From positions 836 through 64,835 of the forward strand of contig JANYAU010000115.1 in NCBI GenBank assembly GCA_025361165.1: a stretch of DNA of 64,000 nt, in the 5' to 3' direction. This document shows positions 1 through 51,120 of the stretch, one piece after another. This DNA comes from Betaproteobacteria bacterium. Its GTDB lineage: Bacteria > Pseudomonadota > Gammaproteobacteria > Burkholderiales > Thiobacteraceae. Numbering within the stretch: position 1 is the stretch's first letter; each line of letters opens with the position of its first letter. The notes below the pieces were generated by a model. That model did no database searches, was not told the DNA's origin, and saw only the letters and a list, made by a program, of their open reading frames with translations. A program made the position numbers and the translations under genes.

Positions 1-304
1 AAAGCGAAACAAATCTCAGCAACAAAAAAATTAGCTTCCCAATTTCGTTGCGAATTGATTCACTATTAAGATCATCTTTTGTTAGAAGGCGCTTATTAAC
101 AAGGAACCCATATCGAAATACGCCTGCCATTCCCAAAACAAACGCTCCAATAGCAAACAACCCCCAAAAGAGATTCCACATCGGCTGGAACAATTCAGAA
201 AAAGAGCCTTTCAAGCCATCACTTATAAAAAATAGCGACGAGCCTGCAACAATGGTGAAAGAGACCACATGAGAGAGAAGAGTTTTGGCCTGCCCCGATA
301 GCAT
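1..304 (-). CDS. small hydrophobic membrane protein; only the N-terminal 101 codons are visible and the 3' end runs off the window
   Basis: ATG at 304-302 is preceded by AAGGTG. The minus-strand frame stays open to position 2. Translation MLSGQAKTLLSHVVSFTIVAGSSLFFISDGLKGSFSELFQPMWNLFWGLFAIGAFVLGMAGVFRYGF... has hydrophobic spans. The region is AT-rich. It is absent from the ORF track because there is no stop inside the window. Confidence 0.45.
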   Translation of the reverse strand, partial: MLSGQAKTLLSHVVSFTIVAGSSLFFISDGLKGSFSELFQPMWNLFWGLFAIGAFVLGMAGVFRYGFLVNKRLLTKDDLNSESIRNEIGKLIFLLLRFVSL

Positions 305-317
305 AAGAATCACCTTT

Positions 318-530
318 TTATGGACATGTGCAAGGTTGTTTTGATCCTAAATATGCTCCAGCAACGAATCCGAGACCCGCAGCTACTGGATTGGCAAATT
401 TTCCAGTCACAGCAGCTACAGCAACGCCCGCGTATGCTTTCGCGGCGCCTCCACCGGAAGAAATGGGGTTAGACTCGATTTTTCACCCCGCACCACCATT
501 CGCGGCGCTGTTTATTGGTTTTGTCTTCAT
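318..530 (-). pseudogene. Gly/Ala-rich (glycine-zipper / class II bacteriocin-like) small peptide frame interrupted by an in-frame TGA
   Basis: GGGAGAG lies 3 nt upstream of the ATG (530-528). The frame reads MKTKPINSAANGGAG, then TGA (485-483), then continues in the same frame as KIESNPISSGGGAAKAYAGVAVAAVTGKFANPVAAGLGFVAGAYLGSKQPCTCP to TAA (320-318). There is no canonical start codon after the TGA. Confidence 0.3.
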
Positions 531-830
531 GATCTCTCCCTGTGCTTGCATAGTGCTCTTAGCTTTTTCTCTTTCCATCCATTGTGACGAAAAACCGATG
601 GGCCATTTTTTGGCTTCCGATGGTCTCATCATTTCGCAGCCTAAGCGGCTTTGCGCACGGTGAGCTTTATGCGCATGCCAGCCTTGGCCAGCATGTTCGC
701 CAGCGCAAAACAAAAGGGGGCACTTGTATCTCAACAACGCCAACAAATTTGATTTGCGGCGAGTCACCTTTCCAAAAAAGAAATCAAAGCGGAACAATGA
801 AGCGCGTAACGGCGCAGACAGAACCTGCAT
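483..830 (-). CDS. hypothetical ORF whose first 36 codons are paralogous to the 45-codon ORF at 25257-25394
   Basis: AGGGAGAG RBS and ATG at 830. N-terminus MQVLSAPLRASLFRFDFFFGKVTRRKSNLLALLRYK versus MQVLYALLRALSFCFDFFSGKLARIKSNFASLLKYK in copy B. The part after codon 36 has no counterpart in copy B. Confidence 0.3.
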   Translation of the reverse strand: MQVLSAPLRASLFRFDFFFGKVTRRKSNLLALLRYKCPLLFCAGEHAGQGWHAHKAHRAQSRLGCEMMRPSEAKKWPIGFSSQWMEREKAKSTMQAQGEIMKTKPINSAANGGAG

Positions 831-1040: not shown

Positions 1041-2003
1041 CTAAACAATACCCGGGGTATTCATAATATTATTATGGGGTAACAATGCCGCTTGCTGATC
1101 TGCGTGGTATGAAGAACGTACCATCGGTCCGCATGCGGCATTAAGAAAACCTATTTCTTTTGCCGCCGCTTCCAGCACCTTAAATTCATCCGGCGTGACA
1201 AAACGCTTCACCGGCAAATGATGCTGGCTCGGTTGCAGGTATTGACCGACAGTGAGCATTTCCACAGCGTGCGCGCGCAAGTCGCGCATCACGCCGAGGA
1301 TTTCTTCGTCGGTTTCACCCAAGCCCACCATCAAGCCGGACTTGGTTGGCACTCCCGGATGCTTGGCTTTAAACGCTTTTAATAACTGCAAGGAATTGCT
1401 GTAGTCGGCACCCGGGCGCGCGGCTTTGTACAAGCGCGGCACGGTTTCGAGATTGTGATTCATCACGTCCGGCGGCGCCATGCTGAGGATCTCCAGCGCC
1501 ACATCCAAGCGCCCGCGAAAATCCGGCACTAAAATTTCGATGCGCGTCGCGGGCGAGTGGGCGCGCACAGCACGTATGCAATCGACAAAATGTTGCGCGC
1601 CGCCATCGCGCAGATCGTCGCGATCGACGCTGGTGATCACGACATATTTCAACTGCATCGCGGCGATGGTGATGGCTAGGTTTTCCGGTTCGCTCACGTC
1701 CGGCGCGTGCGGCTTGCCGTGGGCCACGTCGCAGAACGGGCAGCGCCGCGTGCACACATCGCCCAAAATCATGAAGGTCGCAGTGCCGTGGGAGAAACAT
1801 TCGCCGATATTGGGGCAAGAGGCTTCCTCGCACACCGTGTGCAATTGATGTTCGCGCAGAATTTTTTTGATCTCGAAAAAGCGCGGGCTATTCGGCGATT
1901 TCGCGCGGATCCAACTCGGCTTGCGCGCCGGCGCTTCAGGCACGATCTTGATCGGGATGCGGGCGGTTTTCAGTTGACCTTTTTGGCGCGACTCGGTGCT
2001 CAT
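1041..2003 (-). CDS. lipA: lipoyl synthase
   Basis: 320 aa with the radical-SAM CxxxCxxC motif ([10 protein letters not shown]) plus the N-terminal [12 protein letters not shown] cluster motif. Confidence 0.96.
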
Positions 2004-23693: not shown

Positions 23694-23757
23694 GGACTAC
23701 TCCAGCGGAGGGATGGGTGCGCGATGGCGCGATAGAACGGCTTGTTTCAGCTGTTCG

Positions 23758-23900
23758 CACAAAATAAAGTTGGATCGTAAAAACGCGTTAAGTAATTGAC
23801 TCTTATTAACCAGTATTAAATTCGGGAAAAATAAAGTTGTATCGTGAAGCGGCGATCTGATCACAAATATCCCTGGAAACACAAAATAAAGTTGTACCGT
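23758..23900 (+). repeat. three direct 21-bp repeats CACAAAATAAAGTTGKAYCGT (TnsB-binding-site-like), in a Tn7L-type arrangement
   Basis: Copies at 23758-23778, 23825-23845 (first 3 nt differ) and 23880-23900. They resemble the Tn7 sites GACAAAATAGTTGGGAAC and GACAATAAAGTCTTAAAC. Confidence 0.75.
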
Positions 23901-23962
23901 GGCCGTAAGAATAATCTACTTCCTGATGTGGTAGTTACCTGCCTGAAAACAAAATTTCTATT

Positions 23963-24124
23963 GAGCCGGCATCCGGGGTAAATGGCCTATCGGCCATTAA
24001 ACATAACCACGACTTATGCAAAGTGCGGGCAGTCGCCAATCGAGTTGGCTTGATGCCCGCACCGCTCTGCGTCCTCCGGGTTCGCATAAGGGATGGTTAT
24101 GTCTGGTGCCCCGGATGCCTGCTC
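23963..24124. other. 160-nt multi-stem palindromic element (candidate structured RNA or MITE-like repeat)
   Basis: Outer stem 23963-23978 / 24109-24124 (15 of 16 bp). Hairpin 23981-23998. Stem 24001-24009 / 24094-24102 plus 24013-24019 / 24084-24090. Stem 24023-24030 / 24055-24062 enclosing 24035-24039 / 24045-24049. Confidence 0.5.
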
Positions 24125-24207
24125 GCACGCAAGACTTTGCCAGGCAGTATGTACGTGGCCATGGCGCATACCGTCGCCGCGTTAGGTTTTAAATGCTAGC
24201 GCTCATC

Positions 24208-24558
24208 TTAGCTACGTGCGGCCCCCTTCGCCGAACGCGCCATCTTCCCCAGCCACGAAAAAAGCATCGCAACCAAGGTCGGCAGATAGAACCACCATAT
24301 AGTTCCAAATATTCCATGAACAATATGAGGAAGCCACGTACGCAAGAATGCGCCTGCAGGCAGTGTATCGAGAATCCTCTCCAAGCCGACTATCACCGCA
24401 TAGGAGACAGGGAAGTCTATGGGCAACCAAAGAGCCCAAAGTAAGCGCGCCTGGCCATCTCCGGATGCGAGGTAGATGACGAACAAGCTAAACATCAATA
24501 GGTGAATTCCAGACAAGACCTGACACCGCGCTTTTGTGCGCGTTGGGCTGCATTTCAT
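24208..24558 (-). CDS. small integral membrane protein (cargo of the mini-element)
   Basis: 116-codon ORF with about 3 hydrophobic spans (LLMFSLFVIYL, FPVSYAVIVGL, IFGTIWWFYLPTLVAMLF). No family recognised. Confidence 0.5.
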   Translation of the reverse strand: MKCSPTRTKARCQVLSGIHLLMFSLFVIYLASGDGQARLLWALWLPIDFPVSYAVIVGLERILDTLPAGAFLRTWLPHIVHGIFGTIWWFYLPTLVAMLFSWLGKMARSAKGAARS

Positions 24559-24724
24559 TTAGCCCAACCTACGCGGGCTGAGACAGCAACGCCCGCAAGG
24601 GCGGGCGTTGGGTGAGATTTTTTATTCTTCAAATAGCAATAACACAATAACCAAAGCCTGACCCTCTTTCTCTCTTTCTTTTGACCCTTTCTGTTGCCAC
24701 AGCGGAGCGACCGGGGTTTTATTT

Positions 24725-25183
24725 CTAAAAGGAAGAACGGCGTTGACTGGCATCGGGGACGAGCCATGTGTCGATGATTTTGCCAACAACTGCAGGTGCC
24801 GCCACAAGCAATAACATATTGAGAAGATGAGGTGGGCTACGAAATATGCCGAAATAGACCAATACGTAATTGTGGCCATACGGATTATAGATGTAGTAGT
24901 AACCGAATATGGCCAACCCAATGAGCAAGCCTAGCCTGTAAAATAAGGCACGAACTATGGCGTAATTCAATAAGAAGAAGAAAGCGATATTTGCAGTTAC
25001 CGCGAGCAACATACGGGATATATACACAAGGTCTGACCTACCCTCACCCCAAAGCGCTACTTCTAATGCTAAGAGTTGCCGCATGATCACCACATAAGCC
25101 ACAGCAAGAGCCAGCTGAATGATGATCTGAATAGATGGATTGTTTAGCCGTGTGTGAGTCATATGCATAGCGATTTTTGGCAT
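24725..25183 (-). CDS. small integral membrane protein (cargo of the mini-element)
   Basis: 152-codon ORF with about 4 hydrophobic spans and visibly AT-rich codon usage relative to neighbouring core genes. No family recognised. Confidence 0.55.
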   Translation of the reverse strand: MPKIAMHMTHTRLNNPSIQIIIQLALAVAYVVIMRQLLALEVALWGEGRSDLVYISRMLLAVTANIAFFFLLNYAIVRALFYRLGLLIGLAIFGYYYIYNPYGHNYVLVYFGIFRSPPHLLNMLLLVAAPAVVGKIIDTWLVPDASQRRSSF

Positions 25184-25256
25184 TCTAATAAAATATGGTC
25201 TAGTTTGAACTTTGCCGCCTTAACTAGCCCTCGATATATCGGAAAAACTAGTATGA

Positions 25257-25394
25257 TCATAAAGCGGTAGGGGTCACATCTTGTATCTTGTATTTTAACA
25301 ACGATGCAAAATTTGATTTGATGCGAGCTAGCTTGCCGGAAAAGAAATCAAAGCAGAACGATAGCGCGCGCAGCAGCGCATACAAAACTTGCAT
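25257..25394 (-). CDS. 45-codon ORF, paralog of the N-terminus of ORF 483-830
   Basis: GGGGAGGG RBS, ATG 25394, TGA 25259-25257. Sequence MQVLYALLRALSFCFDFFSGKLARIKSNFASLLKYKIQDVTPTAL. By manual alignment, 23 of the first 36 residues match copy A, and six of those identical residues use synonymous codons. Confidence 0.4.
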   Translation of the reverse strand: MQVLYALLRALSFCFDFFSGKLARIKSNFASLLKYKIQDVTPTAL

Positions 25395-25515
25395 GATCCC
25401 TCCCCTGGATTTGGCGTGATGCGCGGCCGGGCTTCTTTTTGCTGAACCGGGTGGCCAGTGCGCACGATGACGTTATTCTCGGGCCATGCCGACGGGATTG
25501 TCAATGGGGATGATT
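25275..25515 (-). repeat. copy B of the promoter/leader/small-ORF module (copy A is at 721-946)
   Basis: See copy A. It lies inside the mini-element, reading inward from the glmS-proximal end. Confidence 0.8.
25475..25504 (-). promoter_or_regulatory. sigma70-like promoter of module copy B
   Basis: On the minus strand, TTGACA (25504-25499), an 18-nt spacer, then GAGAAT (25480-25475). Confidence 0.4.
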
Positions 25516-25621
25516 TAGGTATATTGTCAAAGAACAGCGTGTGAGACCGTTCTCTATCAATCGCTCAGGGAATTTTGCAAGAGGCGCAAGGAATAAAGGG
25601 GCTCTTGGCACCCCTTGGCCT

Positions 25622-25648
25622 ACGCGCCAACTTTATTTTGCGTCAACA
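25622..25648 (-). repeat. glmS-proximal terminal repeat of the mini-element (TGT terminus plus one intact TnsB-site-like repeat)
   Basis: The reverse complement reads TGTTGACGCAAAATAAAGTTGGCGCGT. A degenerate second site is at 25562-25580 and an oppositely oriented degenerate copy at 25586-25608. Confidence 0.7.
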
Positions 25649-25673
25649 AATCAGCTTCATACGCGCAACGAGT

Positions 25674-27500
25674 TTACTCCACCGTCACCGACTTGGCCAA
25701 GTTGCGCGGCTTGTCCACATCGGTGCCTTTTTTCAGCGCCGCATGATAGGCCAGCAACTGCACCGGCACCGCATGCACCACCGGCGACAACACGCCCATG
25801 TGGCGCGGCGTGCGGATCACGTGCACGCCTTCGGCTTCACCGAAGTGGCTGTCGAGATCGGCGAACACATACAACTCGCCGCCGCGCGCATGCACTTCCT
25901 GCATATTCGATTTTACTTTTTCCAACAACACGTCGTTGGGGGCGATCACCACCACCGGCATATCGCTGTCCACGAGCGCCAGCGGGCCATGCTTCAACTC
26001 GCCGGCGGGATAGGCTTCGGCGTGGATATAGGAAATTTCCTTGAGCTTGAGCGCGCCTTCGAGTGCGATCGGATAATGCAGTCCGCGCCCGAGAAACAGC
26101 GCGTGTTCTTTATGCGCAAAGCGCTCCGCCCAAGCTTGAATTTGCGGCTCCAAATTCAACGCATGTTGCACGCTGCCGGGCAGATGGCGCAAGGCCTCGA
26201 GGTGATCATGTTCTTGCTGCGGCGTGAGCCGGCCGCGGGTTTTCGCTAGCACCAGGGTCAGGATGAACAAGGCCGCCAATTGCGTGGTGAAAGCCTTGGT
26301 CGAGGCCACGCCGATCTCGGCCCCGGCGCGGGTGAAGAACGTCAACTTGGAGGCGCGTGGAATGGCGCTTTCGCGTACGTTACAAATCGAGAGCGTCTTG
26401 GTGTGGCCCAATTCTTTGGCGCGCTTTAAGGCTTCCATGGTGTCCAGCGTCTCGCCGGATTGCGAAATAGTGACGATGAGCTGCTTCGGATTCGGGATCG
26501 AATCGCGGTAGCGGTATTCATGTCCCAGTTCGACGTTGCACGGGATTTTTGCGATCGATTCCACCCATAAGCGCGCAACTTGTCCGGCGTAAAAACTGGT
26601 GCCCGCGGCGAGTATCAGCACGCTGTCCGCATCGCGCAACACCTCCTCGGCATCCGGACCGAACAAAGCTGGCGTCACGCCCTCGGCCAATACGCCTTCC
26701 AAGGTATCGGTCAGCGCGCGCGGCTGCTCGTGGATTTCTTTTTGCATGTAGTGCTGATACGGGCCGAGATCGACCGCATCGGCGGAAATTTCGGAGATGC
26801 GCACCGGGCGAGTGACAGCGTGGCCATCGCGATCGACGATGGTGATGGACTCGCTCGTGACTAAGGCCACGTCGCCTTCATCCAGATAGATGACCTTGCG
26901 CGTGGCGGAAATAATCGCGGAGACATCAGAGGCGAAAAAGTTTTCACCTTCTCCTACGCCGATCAGCAAGGGGCAGCCGACGCGCGCGCAACATACGATG
27001 CCGGGCATCTGTGGCGTGACCACACCAATGGCGTAGGCGCCCTCAAGCTCGCTCACAGCCTGGCGCGTAGCCGCGAACAAATCGTTCGATTGCTTGAAAT
27101 AATAATGAATCAGATGCGCGATGACTTCGGTATCGGTTTGCGACTCGAACACATAACCCAGCGCTTTCAAGCGCGCGCGCTGTTCCTCGTGATTTTCGAT
27201 GATGCCGTTATGCACCACGGCGATTTCGTTTTGCGAAAAATGCGGATGCGCGTTGTCTTCAGTGACGCCGCCGTGAGTGGCCCAGCGCGTGTGGCCGATG
27301 CCGATGAAGCCGGTCAATTGCTGCGCTTTGGCCTCGTTTTCCATTTCCACGACGCGCCCTACGCGCCGCACGCGCTGCAAGCCGCCATTGAGTACGGCGA
27401 TACCGGCGGAATCGTAGCCGCGGTATTCGAGGCGCTTTAAGCCTTCGATCAAAACCGGAACCACATCGCGCTTGGCGATGGCGCCAACTATGCCGCACAT
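25674..27500 (-). CDS. glmS: glutamine--fructose-6-phosphate aminotransferase
   Basis: 608 aa with an MCGIVG N-terminal nucleophile, SIS domains and the C-terminal KSVTVE. Confidence 0.98.
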
Positions 27501-48898: not shown

Positions 48899-50035
48899 TT
48901 ACACAATATCGAGATGATCAAGCCCGGACATGATGTCCCGATCTTTCGATTCCTGTCCGTGCAGTTTGATCTTAAGCCGCAGGTCGTTGAGCGAGTCGGC
49001 GTTTCTGAGTGCGTCTTCGTAGGTAATGAGTCCCGCTTCGTAGAGTTCGAACAAGTGCTGGTCGAAGGTTTGCATACCGAGTTCGCGCGATTTGGCCATG
49101 ACTTCTTTGATTTCGTGCACCGCGCCTTTGAAAATCAAGTCGGCGATGAAGGGCGAGTTGAGCATGACTTCCACGGCGGCGACGCGGCCTTTACCTTCGC
49201 GGCGCGGGATTAGGCGCTGCGAGATGAAGGCTTTGAGGTTGAGCGATAAATCCATCAGTAACTGTGAGCGGCGCTCTTCGGGGAAGAAGTTAATAATCCG
49301 ATCCAACGCTTGGTTTGCGCTGTTGGCGTGCAGCGTGGACAGGCACAAGTGGCCGGTTTCGGCGAAGGCGATGGCGTAATCCATGGTCTCGCGGTCACGG
49401 ATCTCGCCGATCAAAATCACATCCGGCGCTTGACGCAGGGTATTTTTCAGCGCCGAGAACCAGCCGTCGGTATCTACGCCGACTTCGCGCTGGGTGATGA
49501 TGCTTTTTTTGTGCTCATGCACGTATTCGATCGGATCTTCGATGGTGATGATGTGATCCTGCGCATGCTCGTTGCGAAAGCCGACCATGGCCGCGAGCGA
49601 AGTGGATTTGCCGGAGCCGGTGCCACCGACGAAAATCACCAGGCCGCGCTTGGTCATGGACACGTCGCGCAGCACTTCCGGCAAGTTCAGTTCTTCAAAC
49701 GAGGGAATAGTGGAATTGATCTGGCGCAGCACGACGCCCACCCGCGCTTGTTGGATGAAAGTGTTGACGCGAAAACGCCCGATATCCGGCGGGGCGATGG
49801 CGAAGTTGCATTCCTTGGTCGACTCGAACTCGTTGGCCTGTTTGTCGTTCATGATGGAGCGCGCCAGTTCCATCGTGTGCTGCGGGGTGAGAGTTTGGTT
49901 GGAGACGGGCGTGATGCGGCCATCGATTTTCAGCGCCGGCGGAAAGCCGGCGGTGATGAATAGGTCAGAGGATTTCTTGCTGACCATGAGGCGCAGCAAG
50001 TCGTGAATAAATTTCTGTGCTTGTTCCCGATCCAT
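48899..50035 (-). CDS. pilU: type IV pilus retraction ATPase PilU
   Basis: 378 aa PilT-family member with Walker A GGTGSGKST, immediately downstream of pilT. Confidence 0.9.
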   Translation of the reverse strand: MDREQAQKFIHDLLRLMVSKKSSDLFITAGFPPALKIDGRITPVSNQTLTPQHTMELARSIMNDKQANEFESTKECNFAIAPPDIGRFRVNTFIQQARVGVVLRQINSTIPSFEELNLPEVLRDVSMTKRGLVIFVGGTGSGKSTSLAAMVGFRNEHAQDHIITIEDPIEYVHEHKKSIITQREVGVDTDGWFSALKNTLRQAPDVILIGEIRDRETMDYAIAFAETGHLCLSTLHANSANQALDRIINFFPEERRSQLLMDLSLNLKAFISQRLIPRREGKGRVAAVEVMLNSPFIADLIFKGAVHEIKEVMAKSRELGMQTFDQHLFELYEAGLITYEDALRNADSLNDLRLKIKLHGQESKDRDIMSGLDHLDIV

Positions 50036-50082
50036 GATGCTCTCCTAGGTGCCCCTGCGCCGCGACGGGAAGGGGCGGTATC

Positions 50083-51120
50083 TTATATTTTCGCGTCTTT
50101 GCGCGCCGCTTTGCGTGCTTCCGTTTCGGTAATAACGTTGCGCCGCACCATGTCTTGCAGGCATTGCTCCATGGTCTGCATCCCGAGCGCTTGGCCGGTT
50201 TGAATCGAGGAATACATTTGCGCGACTTTATTTTCGCGAATCAGGTTGCGGATCGCCGGGGTGCCGATCATGATCTCGTGCGCAGCGACGCGGCCGCTAC
50301 CGTCCTTGGTTTTGAGTAGCGTTTGCGCGATTACCGAACGCAAACTTTCCGATAGCATGGCGCGCACCATGTCTTTTTCCGCTGCGGGGAACACGTCCAC
50401 GATACGGTCCACGGTTTTCGCCGCGGAGCTGGTGTGCAGCGTGGCGAATACTAAGTGGCCGGTTTCGGCCGCGGTAAGCGCCAAACGGATGGTTTCCAAA
50501 TCGCGCAATTCGCCCACCAAAATCACGTCCGGGTCTTCGCGTAGCGCGGAGCGCAGGGCGTTGGTGAAGGATAAGGTGTGCGGGCCGACTTCGCGCTGGT
50601 TGATCAAACACTTTTTGCTTTCATGCACGAATTCGATCGGATCTTCCAGGGTCAGGATATGGCCATAATCGTCCTCGTTCACCTGGTTGACCATCGCCGC
50701 CAGCGTGGTGGATTTGCCGGAGCCGGTGGGGCCGGTCACGAGCACGATGCCGTTGGGTTGCTGGCACAGTTCTTTAAAGATGGGCGGTGAGTTCAACTGC
50801 TCCAGCGTCAGCACTTTAGAGGGAATGGTACGGAAGGCCGCCGCCGCACCGCGTTGCTGGTTGAAAGCGTTGACGCGGAAGCGCGCCAGGTTGGGAATCT
50901 CGAACGAGAAATCGACTTCGAGATTTTCTTCGAAGTGTTTGCGTTGCCCGTCGTTCATGATGTCGTACACCATGCCATGCACGCCCTTGTGGTCGAGCGG
51001 CTCGACGTTGATACGGCGAATATCGCCGTTTACTCGGATCAGCGGTGGCAGACCTGCCGAGAGATGCAGGTCGGAGGCCTTGTTTTTGACCGAGAAGGCC
51101 AGCAGATCGGCGATTTCCAT
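50083..51120 (-). CDS. pilT: type IV pilus twitching motility ATPase PilT
   Basis: 345 aa with GPTGSGKSTT and the AIRNLIRE motif. Confidence 0.95.
   Translation of the reverse strand: MEIADLLAFSVKNKASDLHLSAGLPPLIRVNGDIRRINVEPLDHKGVHGMVYDIMNDGQRKHFEENLEVDFSFEIPNLARFRVNAFNQQRGAAAAFRTIPSKVLTLEQLNSPPIFKELCQQPNGIVLVTGPTGSGKSTTLAAMVNQVNEDDYGHILTLEDPIEFVHESKKCLINQREVGPHTLSFTNALRSALREDPDVILVGELRDLETIRLALTAAETGHLVFATLHTSSAAKTVDRIVDVFPAAEKDMVRAMLSESLRSVIAQTLLKTKDGSGRVAAHEIMIGTPAIRNLIRENKVAQMYSSIQTGQALGMQTMEQCLQDMVRRNVITETEARKAARKDAKI

Follow-up and report, generated by a model that had tools for sequence, protein, structure and literature searches.

The 64,000-nt stretch analysed here (referred to as the window) lies on contig JANYAU010000115.1 of a Betaproteobacteria bacterium and contains two homologous segments, both on its minus strand. 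One segment, copy A (~716–946), locates downstream of lipA (1041–2003, minus strand), and the other, copy B (~25261–25515), locates downstream of glmS (25674–27500, minus strand). The identity between them is ~79%. An earlier note, made from the sequence alone, had described them as a duplicated ~230-bp module of promoter, conserved leader and small open reading frame (ORF), which might act as a regulatory leader or leader peptide driving variable cargo. Our analysis confirms the observation of two homologous segments and supports this interpretation in part. The two belong to a family of dispersed intergenic repeats of ~250 bp that is small and lineage-restricted. In our estimate, the chances are about even that the repeat is a promoter-leader platform, which ends in a recombination-prone arm and heads a swappable slot for AT-rich accessory genes.

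Four kinds of comparison bear out the duplication. The repeat search pairs 723–873 with 25287–25437 (151 nt, 79%) and 888–939 with 25456–25507 (52 nt, 79%). In the MAFFT alignment, the similarity of the two copies starts at AATCAT(G/C)CCC, just upstream of TTGACAAT, and stops at GTG(C/A)CCCC. BLASTN of copy A against copy B gives E = 5e-40, and a profile of the family finds exactly two places over the 64-kb window (E = 1e-55 and 6e-49), the next match having E = 0.4.

All module features described below are on the minus strand. Copy B opens with a promoter-like site (25475–25504), in which the -35 hexamer TTGACA (25499–25504) and the -10 hexamer GAGAAT (25475–25480) are separated by an 18-nt spacer. 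The promoter-like site of copy A (907–936) has the same arrangement, with TTGACA at 931–936, 18 nt of spacer and AAGAAT at 907–912. The promoter-motif scan matches 10 of 12 positions in each copy, in agreement with the hexamers proposed before. The leader follows at 25395–25468 in copy B, where alignments and RNAalifold define a predicted 5′ untranslated region (UTR) of ~73 nt with a 5′ stem-loop, and at 831–900 in copy A; its length of ~67–73 nt fits the ~70 nt given by the earlier note. The most conserved leader block reads AAGAA.CCCGGCCGCGCA.CACGCCAAATCCA.GGGAG in copy B. The strong ribosome-binding site and the ATG are likewise in place: the Shine-Dalgarno (SD) sequence of copy B, read from the sequence, is GGGGAGGG (25398–25405), 3 nt before the ATG at 25392–25394, and that of copy A is AAGGGAGAG (834–842), upstream of the ATG at 828–830.

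The short ORF of copy B (25257–25394) encodes 45 aa, for which no protein-level constraint is detectable. Within it, the U-rich tract GAUUUCUUUUCCGG at codons 15–19 (25336–25348) is a predicted pairing partner of the SD region. The ORF also contains the terminal repeat arm (‘TE’, 25270–25312), whose core is AAATACAAGATACAAGATGTGACCCC at 25270–25295. Copy A has 36 codons in common with copy B (723–830), and its ORF continues to 483 through unrelated sequence. The terminal arm of copy A (716–745) is degenerate: it ends in ...GTTGAGATACAAGTGCCCCC, contains one ATACAAG unit and has GTGCCCCC in place of GTGACCCC, and the similarity between the copies ends here. The peptides quoted earlier are correct, with 23 of 36 residues identical and six of these using different codons, and the ORFs do stop after 45 codons in copy B and 115 in copy A. 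An 8-bp inverted repeat, TTTGATTT/AAATCAAA, had also been pointed out within the ORF. It is present in both window copies, but across 14 family members it shows no excess over shuffled controls.

The family extends to at least 15 distinct copies in ~10 genomic contexts in public metagenomes, whose contigs are designated by L numbers. The hosts of all copies are uncultured Burkholderiales-like sediment bacteria, and the runs containing window DNA are sediment metagenomes. Copies occur after lipA (copy A), after glmS inside a Tn7-like element (copy B, L001-4 and L081), at the same Tn7-like right end with a different flank (L082), after cysG (L084), after an lpqE-like gene (L085-87), after a phosphoesterase gene (L088) and after a DUF433 gene (L090, L092 and L094). 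Others adjoin a divergent gene without known identity (L067) or an ORF6N-like gene judged by eye (L080), or are truncated by an IS110-family element judged by eye (L079) or by another gene (L089). A peptide search yielded five ORFs in ENA metagenome assemblies and a profile search 13 further ORFs, and the copy in L067 was found by DNA pattern alone, as the sole genuine match among 55 in the metagenome scan. An exhaustive HMMER scan of 1.84 billion representative proteins gave only 15 matches, all of at most 118 aa and with unrelated, junk-like tails, so the family is small and restricted.

The pattern CACGCCAAATCCANGGGAG has 19 matches in genome contigs against ~17 expected, all of them by chance, and none aligns past the pattern; in viral contigs it has no match. 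The arm pattern has one chance match in viral contigs, in the AT-rich phage L083. BLASTN of the module against plasmids matched nothing. Rfam has no hit at the gathering score over the 64 kb and reaches only chance level (E 0.7–1.5) when 25150–25700 is searched at E up to 10, in line with the earlier note, which knew of no such family. A 68-nt unitig of depth 13 (runs X1 and X2; compare window 25268–25300) leads from codon 8 of the module straight into the terminal arm and on into an unrelated flank; it is a third copy, with an internal deletion, from some other place in the same community.

Alignment of 16 family sequences revealed the anatomy of the module: promoter, leader, SD, ATG, ~27 shared codons and an ending that takes one of two forms. 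The similarity begins ~15–20 nt upstream of the -35 hexamer, at C(T)AAA...CC. The hexamers, TTGAC(A/C) and (G/A/C)AGAAT, stand 18 nt apart and are kept in most copies while the spacer sequence varies; one or both are missing in L067, L079 and L089, and L094 has an insertion after a CAGTAT -10. The ATG is invariant and the SD near-invariant in all 16 sequences. The long-arm ending reads ...AAATTTTGC.TCGTTGTT.AAATACAAGATACAAGATGTGACCCC, and the short form reads ...TTAAATCG(T/A)GTCTGACCCC, with the short-variant pattern AAATCGWGTCTGACCCC. Most copies end sharply at ...GATGTGACCCC and some variants at ...GTCTGACCCC. L089 has the long and short endings in series, and in L084 an insertion of 100 nt separates the arm from the shared codons. 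Mean pairwise identity is 0.37 in the 40 nt upstream, 0.70 in the promoter, 0.78 in the leader, 0.81 in the SD-ATG block and 0.77 in the ORF, and it falls to 0.26 in the 40 nt after the arm.

We notice that in L079 (1–548) the 3′ part of an IS110-family-like transposase gene, judged by eye, lies directly upstream of the module and replaces its promoter. By comparison with L090, the junction is at about the predicted transcription start, and we read it as a simple insertion into the module.

The six synonymous codon differences had been taken as a hint of selection on the peptide, and the earlier note itself reasoned that a lack of codon-position bias among homologues would mean conservation at the nucleotide level only. 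Over the 36 shared codons, copies A and B differ at 26 nucleotides, distributed 9/8/9 over codon positions 1/2/3, so that six synonymous differences are the neutral expectation. Over 27 codons of 15 distinct copies, the variable columns number 18/16/20 and the minimum changes 24/19/30 at the three positions. The pooled ratio of nonsynonymous to synonymous differences (pN/pS) is 0.56, compared with 0.67–0.95 in the five other frames. Column permutations give 0.77±0.18, and 39 of 500 are as low as the observed value. The ORF is also conserved to the same degree as the non-coding leader (0.77 and 0.78). With no bias among codon positions, conservation resides at the nucleotide level, and selection on the peptide is not supported. 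We conclude from these comparisons that the nucleotide sequence, not the peptide, is what is conserved in the module ORF.

These results bear on the possibility, raised in the earlier note, that the module is a conserved small-protein or leader-peptide gene. The functional entity would then be either a product of ~40 aa or an N-terminal leader that stays constant while the C-terminus fused to it varies. The invariant ATG, the near-invariant SD and a frame open in all 15 copies, most of which came from ORF calls, favour such a gene. The same holds for L089, in which a second, diverged SD-plus-ORF unit (500–804; nhmmer E = 5e-8) opens an ORF of 98 aa or more. The N-terminus of this ORF is similar, MLVRLTPLRSLIFCVGFLYSK..., and a protein search with it found no homologues. 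However, the ORF lacks codon-position bias, its pN/pS does not differ from the null and it is conserved no better than the leader. The tails after the arm are 2–70 aa of unrelated, junk-like sequence, which overlap the real cargo genes out of frame, and the protein searches, including that of 1.84e9 representatives, found no longer family with the shared N-terminus. In addition, the internally deleted variant, found at the DNA level (X1, X2), joins codon 8 to the arm out of frame. We therefore regard a functional peptide as improbable. Translation of the leader ORF as such may still matter, since the ATG and the SD hardly vary. An ORF on the antisense strand (MYFNN...) was also considered and rejected, because it contains stops in L067.

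For 14 copies, RNAalifold predicts a consensus structure with three elements. One is a 5′ stem-loop, another a small internal hairpin; in the third, a long helix, the SD region (CCA.GGGAG.GAU) pairs with the U-rich tract of codons 15–19. Over its 32 pairs, 95.1% of the cells are paired, whereas sliding the partners leaves 39–60%; compensatory change occurs at six pairs, and the covariation score lies above 500 of 500 shuffles. Helices 1–3 are 93–97% paired, with compensatory changes at four pairs. Helix 4, which contains the SD, has 12 pairs with 93.5% of cells paired, and its pair 75:141 is A-U in seven sequences and G-C in five. Three of its pairs are invariant G·U and three more are mostly G·U; owing to these many G·U pairs, the helix fits the sense RNA only. 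The Phe-rich look of the peptide can be attributed to the U-tract of this helix, as a by-product. Folding of the whole module in single copies was uninformative (z = -0.2 and -1.6).

The predicted fold, in which the SD is sequestered, would suit a module that is a cis-regulatory leader only, such as an attenuator, a riboswitch-like element or a type I-toxin-like mRNA, whose copies would stand ahead of paralogous operons, with the arm as one half of a terminator or stabiliser hairpin and without any part in recombination. The long hairpin that the arm forms with its inverted copy in L067 agrees with this idea. We consider it quite unlikely all the same: no Rfam family matches even at E up to 10, the cargo genes are mutually unrelated, and the replacement of cargo between identical flanks, the direct repeats of L001 and the tip duplications described below would be left unexplained. 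Like hok-like type I toxin mRNAs and translated leader ORFs, the module has a short ORF that follows a long, structured 5′ UTR, and its SD is predicted to be sequestered by a downstream tract. It differs in that the peptide is unconstrained, has no clean transmembrane helix, carries R, D and K within its N-terminal half and is not a typical hydrophobic toxin, and in that the unit always heads other genes. The promoter-motif scan of copy B found no promoter-like site for an antisense RNA inside the ORF.

The module ends in a 27–40 bp repeat arm, a feature that the earlier note had missed and that we take, from the sequences on either side of it, to be a recombination breakpoint. At every locus, the sequence after ...GACCCC differs within 0–10 nt. 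Superimposing the window on L001 shows flanks that are 96–99% identical on both sides of a slot of 0.75 kb in the window and 1.95 kb in L001, and the cargo is unrelated. Between the arm and TCTGGAATTC, the window has an ORF for a 152-aa membrane protein and L001 has a 479-aa ORF with a C-terminus that by eye is PEP-CTERM-like. L081 and L082 provide two more junction variants. L090, L092 and L094 have in common an upstream gene plus module and a downstream PP2C/kinase gene, and carry three unrelated cargos in between.

Such replacement of cargo has to be weighed against the idea that the module is the remnant end of a transposon or a MITE (miniature inverted-repeat transposable element), like the Tn3-derived inverted-repeat miniature elements (TIMEs) or Correia elements, with an outward promoter; ...GACCCC would be its tip and the varying DNA its insertion sites. 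Its ~250 bp and promoter are TIME-like (PMC4133298), the tip reads GGGGTCA..., copies occur in many unrelated contexts, and a genuine 250-bp MITE is present in the same genomes and inserted into the module in L085. In contrast to an insertion, both outer flanks are conserved at orthologous loci and only the DNA next to the tip changes, which variation of insertion sites cannot give. There is also no inverted repeat inside the units, the match of the arm to the 5′ flank being not above shuffles in any of 16 copies, and neither a target duplication nor a shared direct repeat in the flanks read. The inverted arms described below have their GGGG tips directed inward to the cargo, opposite to transposon ends. 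A transposon end is thus unlikely, and a MITE with two ends was rejected, as no copy has an inverted arm on the 5′ side and the flanks read have no target duplication.

The MITE itself occupies L085 9623–9872 and is also found in L087. It is bounded by 37-nt inverted repeats starting GGGGTCAGAC, which resemble Tn3-family ends, with the tip GGGGTCAGACAC... and the end ...GGTTAAGG. In L085 it is inserted into the module right after ~codon 26, and its tip shares GTCTGACCCC with the short ending of the module. Remnants are seen in L001 (6585–6626), L082 and L067.

Beyond the cargo, an inverted copy of the arm is found in three contigs. In L001 it comprises 29 nt with 93% complementarity at a distance of 1661 nt, and in L094 28 nt with 96% complementarity at 408 nt. 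In L067 the distance is ~230 nt, and the whole region folds at -146 kcal/mol (z = -6). The recurring stretch in the three contigs is 26–29 nt, and its GGGG tips face the cargo. L001 and L094 have ~13 further nt in common beyond the inverted arm, and L090, L092 and L094 show, by eye, inverted copies of the short form at the right-hand border of the slot. The L001 cassette is moreover flanked by a 22-nt direct repeat, AGTG(C/G)CATGAGTGTCTGACCCC. In the window, a possible degenerate inverted arm, GGTGTCAGGTCTTG (compare GGGGTCAGACTCGA of relatives), lies at the far edge of the slot of copy B (24514–24527, minus strand); this likeness is weak and judged by eye. The arm tip itself is subject to local duplication: TGACCCC plus the next 8–9 nt is tandemly duplicated two to five times, in units of 15–22 bp, in L067, L079, L084, L089 and L092, and mirrored duplications occur on the right arm in L094 and L090. 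No passive model that we could think of explains these recurrent, locus-specific tip duplications.

Arms that bracket the cargo in L001, L067 and L094, together with a site inside the short ORF, could point to an invertible ‘expression site’ switch, in which inversion between the arms toggles or swaps the cargo. The Mycoplasma vsa-vrs system and the Gin-controlled G segment of phage Mu each have a promoter and a constant 5′ ORF that run up to a recombination site, of which inverted copies lie downstream. The module resembles these systems in that its promoter and constant 5′ ORF end in a putative site with inverted copies downstream, whereas no recombinase, second orientation or in-frame alternative C-terminus is seen. 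A single orientation is present in four independent L001-type contigs and among all peptide tails, L001 after inversion would express nothing sensible, and the window copies are without a clear second arm. Furthermore, no recombinase gene lies near any copy among the called genes, which were scanned up to 10 kb in L001, L085, L067, L084, L088 and L094 and in part in the window. We give inversion, of the kind driven by Gin or Hin, very little chance.

In the explanation at about even chances given at the outset, that of a dispersed promoter-leader platform with a recombination-prone arm, the unit would serve as a fixed ‘expression head’ for small, AT-rich, horizontally acquired genes in the slot. 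The predicted sigma-70-type promoter would read through the leader and the terminal arm into the slot. Downstream of it, the ~70-nt leader would fold into the 5′ stem-loop, the SD before the ATG would pair with the U-rich tract ~15 codons into the short ORF, and the 27–40 bp arm would close the module at ...GATGTGACCCC or, in its shorter variant, at ...GTCTGACCCC. The leader fold, together with translation of the short ORF, would occlude the SD and in this way probably govern how strong expression is or when it occurs, and the leader may regulate translation or stability. The sequences themselves show the family and its boundaries, the absence of constraint on codons, the retained RNA pairing, the replacement of cargo and the inverted arms; we infer that the promoter fires and that recombination at or within the arms exchanges the cargo. 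New cargo would first be joined at the TGACCCC tip by a site-directed process, and strains would later swap alleles through homologous recombination within the conserved arms and flanks, as has been suggested for the mosaic repeats and minimal mobile elements of Neisseria (PMC1797815); we lean towards such a mix of initial joining and later allele replacement. The slot would then be a recombination hot spot. One copy of the module rides a non-autonomous Tn7-like element at attTn7.

Several points weigh against this explanation. Within the genes scanned, no recombinase gene lies near the copies. The two copies of the window have no clear inverted arm beyond their cargo, and the cargo of copy A runs off the window. 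The sharp 3′ boundary could partly just mark the end of functional constraint. The copies represent ~6–8 independent lineages, so covariation lends modest support, and sequences that are related can outscore shuffles even where no structure exists. Most of the extra copies were found via called ORFs, and the observation that the ORF is always open is biased by this route of discovery. Finally, the sole ‘RNA’ run sharing words with the window covers part of a cargo gene only and may be DNA.

A stronger version of the promoter-leader platform would make the arms the sites of a dedicated enzyme encoded elsewhere, a recombinase or an HUH-type nickase. The module would then be a promoter-plus-attI analogue in a system of cassette capture and expression with the integrase in trans, with several platforms per chromosome, one of them hitch-hiking on the Tn7-like element, and the 15–22-bp tip duplications would be scars of the enzyme. 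We regard this version as doubtful. The likeness to an integron platform (Pc plus attI) lies in the fixed promoter, the precise recombination boundary and the variable, often ORFan, AT-rich genes, and in the L001 cassette with its 22-nt direct repeats. Unlike in an integron, there are many platforms per genome, the cargo stands between inverted arms with inward tips, and a translated leader ORF intervenes between promoter and site. In the same scan of called genes, no intI tyrosine recombinase lies near the copies, and the junctions read, with their boundaries ...TGACCCC, have no attC R″/R′ boxes (RYYYAAC/GTTRRRY). An identity with integrons was rejected on these two grounds.

The family belongs with two known kinds of sequence, the promoter-bearing dispersed repeats and the recombination-prone intergenic mosaics. 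Among the latter, the dRS3/RS mosaic elements and ‘minimal mobile elements’ of Neisseria have been proposed as substrates for homologous or site-specific recombination (PMC1797815). They resemble our family as short intergenic repeats with inverted repeats beside hypervariable genes, with alternative cargo between conserved flanks and arrays that grow by local duplication. The sequences are unrelated, however, and the repeat described here has a promoter, a folded leader and an ORF, stands on the upstream side only and keeps a fixed orientation. Among the former, TIMEs are 262 bp long with a demonstrated promoter, and they carry promoters and capture genes (PMC4133298). TIMEs and Correia elements are, like the module, dispersed non-autonomous units of ~150–260 bp with promoters able to drive downstream genes and a proposed role in ‘gene capture and expression’. 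The tip of the module likewise reads GGGG. They differ from the module, which lacks the two-ended structure that defines TIMEs: its arm is at one end only, without target duplication, and its variable DNA is bounded by conserved DNA on both sides. Tn3-family inverted repeats read GGGG... from the outside. We also considered the 5′ end of a group II intron, a retron non-coding RNA, the omega-RNA of TnpB, the bridge or seek RNA scaffold of IS110, a Xer/dif site and the leader peptide of a Phe attenuator. All of these were dropped for want of a matching neighbour gene or motif.

The vehicle of copy B is a non-autonomous Tn7-like element of 1.9 kb (23752–25648, minus strand) with a TGT right tip and TnsB-type repeats, which supports the ‘mini-Tn7’ setting of the earlier note. 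The tip (25646–25648) is 25 nt from the glmS stop codon (25674–25676), and the right end is proximal. TnsB-type ACAAAATAAAGTTGG sites locate at 23759, 23826 and 23881 on the plus strand and at 25626 on the minus strand, three on the left and one on the right; there are five matches against 0.28 expected. The only two ORFs in 23752–25648, of 116 and 152 aa, have no Pfam match, and with no tns genes in this interval the element is non-autonomous. GCTGA occurs at 23747–23751, abutting the left tip, and again at 25651–25655, 2 nt from the right tip. The insertion 25 nt after the glmS stop, the TGT...ACA tips and the repeated TnsB-type sites are as in Tn7 and mini-Tn7. The differences are the lack of tnsABCDE, the total size of 1.9 kb, a right end that has lost two of the three sites of L001, and the offset of the candidate 5-bp duplication by 2 nt. 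The number of right-end sites varies between contigs, with one in the window, two in L081 and three in L001 and L082. L001 holds the same element, and L082 has the same right end in a flank other than glmS. The element is, or was, mobilisable.

Behind both copies lies AT-rich cargo, as the earlier note observed, with 44–46% GC compared with 56.5% for the window. Taken over the family, the cargo consists of ORFans and conflict-type genes, and the cargo genes of different copies are unrelated to one another. The general picture given by the earlier note of a conserved promoter and leader ahead of variable, AT-rich, mostly small membrane-protein cargo holds and now extends to ~10 contexts. The conflict-type cargo (L085 10055–10696, L080 868–1416 and L067 1928–2326) comprises a SUKH-1 (SMI1/KNR4) immunity-type protein, an AAA_21 (AbiEii-like) ATPase and a HigB/Gp49-type toxin. 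The variable slot of copy B (24517–25269, minus strand) is ~0.75 kb with 45.7% GC and contains the 152-aa membrane-protein ORF (24725–25183), which has no Pfam match. A part of this gene (24898–25083) has ~98% identity to a contig of the glacier ‘metagenomic RNA-Seq’ run X6, so the gene circulates outside sediment samples. On the far side of the slot, the window has a REP-like (repetitive extragenic palindromic) motif, CCGCGTAGGTTGGGCT, with the hairpin GTTGGGCT...AGCCCAAC (24541–24576, minus strand), and in L067 the same pair stands right after the inverted arm (~2460–2495).

The cargo of copy A (1–715, minus strand; 46.5% GC) includes a second SD-ATG unit, a Gly-rich ORF of 30 aa (318–410) and a membrane-protein ORF that runs off the left edge of the window. 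Some of the cargo turns up again in L084, following a module at another locus. The second unit, GGGAGAGATCATG (~528–540), ends at an X-type site, GAGTCTAACCCC (465–476). Over 318–540 on the minus strand, it heads a 15-codon ORF and, after an in-frame TGA, a Gly/Ala-rich peptide that resembles a glycine zipper (...GGGAAKAYAGVAVAAVTGKFANPVAAGLGFVAGAYLGSKQPCTCP). The latter has no Pfam match and its frame is not kept in the L084 homologue; it may be a small membrane or bacteriocin-like peptide, or non-coding.

The annotated parts of the window are otherwise ordinary chromosome, with hemE, priA, an ECF sigma factor gene, atpB (PF00119), phoB/phoR-like genes and a gene for a GGDEF protein. The identity of the atp subunits and glmU upstream of glmS comes from the collinear L001, and that of argS is based on the same synteny. 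Elsewhere in the window (48899–51120), two adjacent ORFs of 378 and 345 aa on the same strand share patches of 73–77% nucleotide identity at a constant offset of 1106 nt, a P-loop-like stretch among them, and are tandem paralogues.

For small-protein annotation, the module is a caution: an orderly ORF of 45 codons that has a strong SD and recurs in ‘conserved’ form can owe this to conservation at the nucleotide level only. In copy B and its relatives, turnover is seen in the cargo of a natural, non-autonomous Tn7-like element at attTn7. If the explanation by a promoter-leader platform is true, uncultured Burkholderiales-like sediment bacteria would use a portable promoter-leader unit as a point of docking and expression for foreign accessory genes. 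Besides many small membrane ORFans, these would include genes of immunity, toxin and Abi-like type, and the unit would sit at many sites on the chromosome as well as on a mini Tn7-like vehicle. Such an organisation of gene flux would resemble that of integrons and of the Neisseria mosaic repeats, without their sites or an adjacent recombinase.

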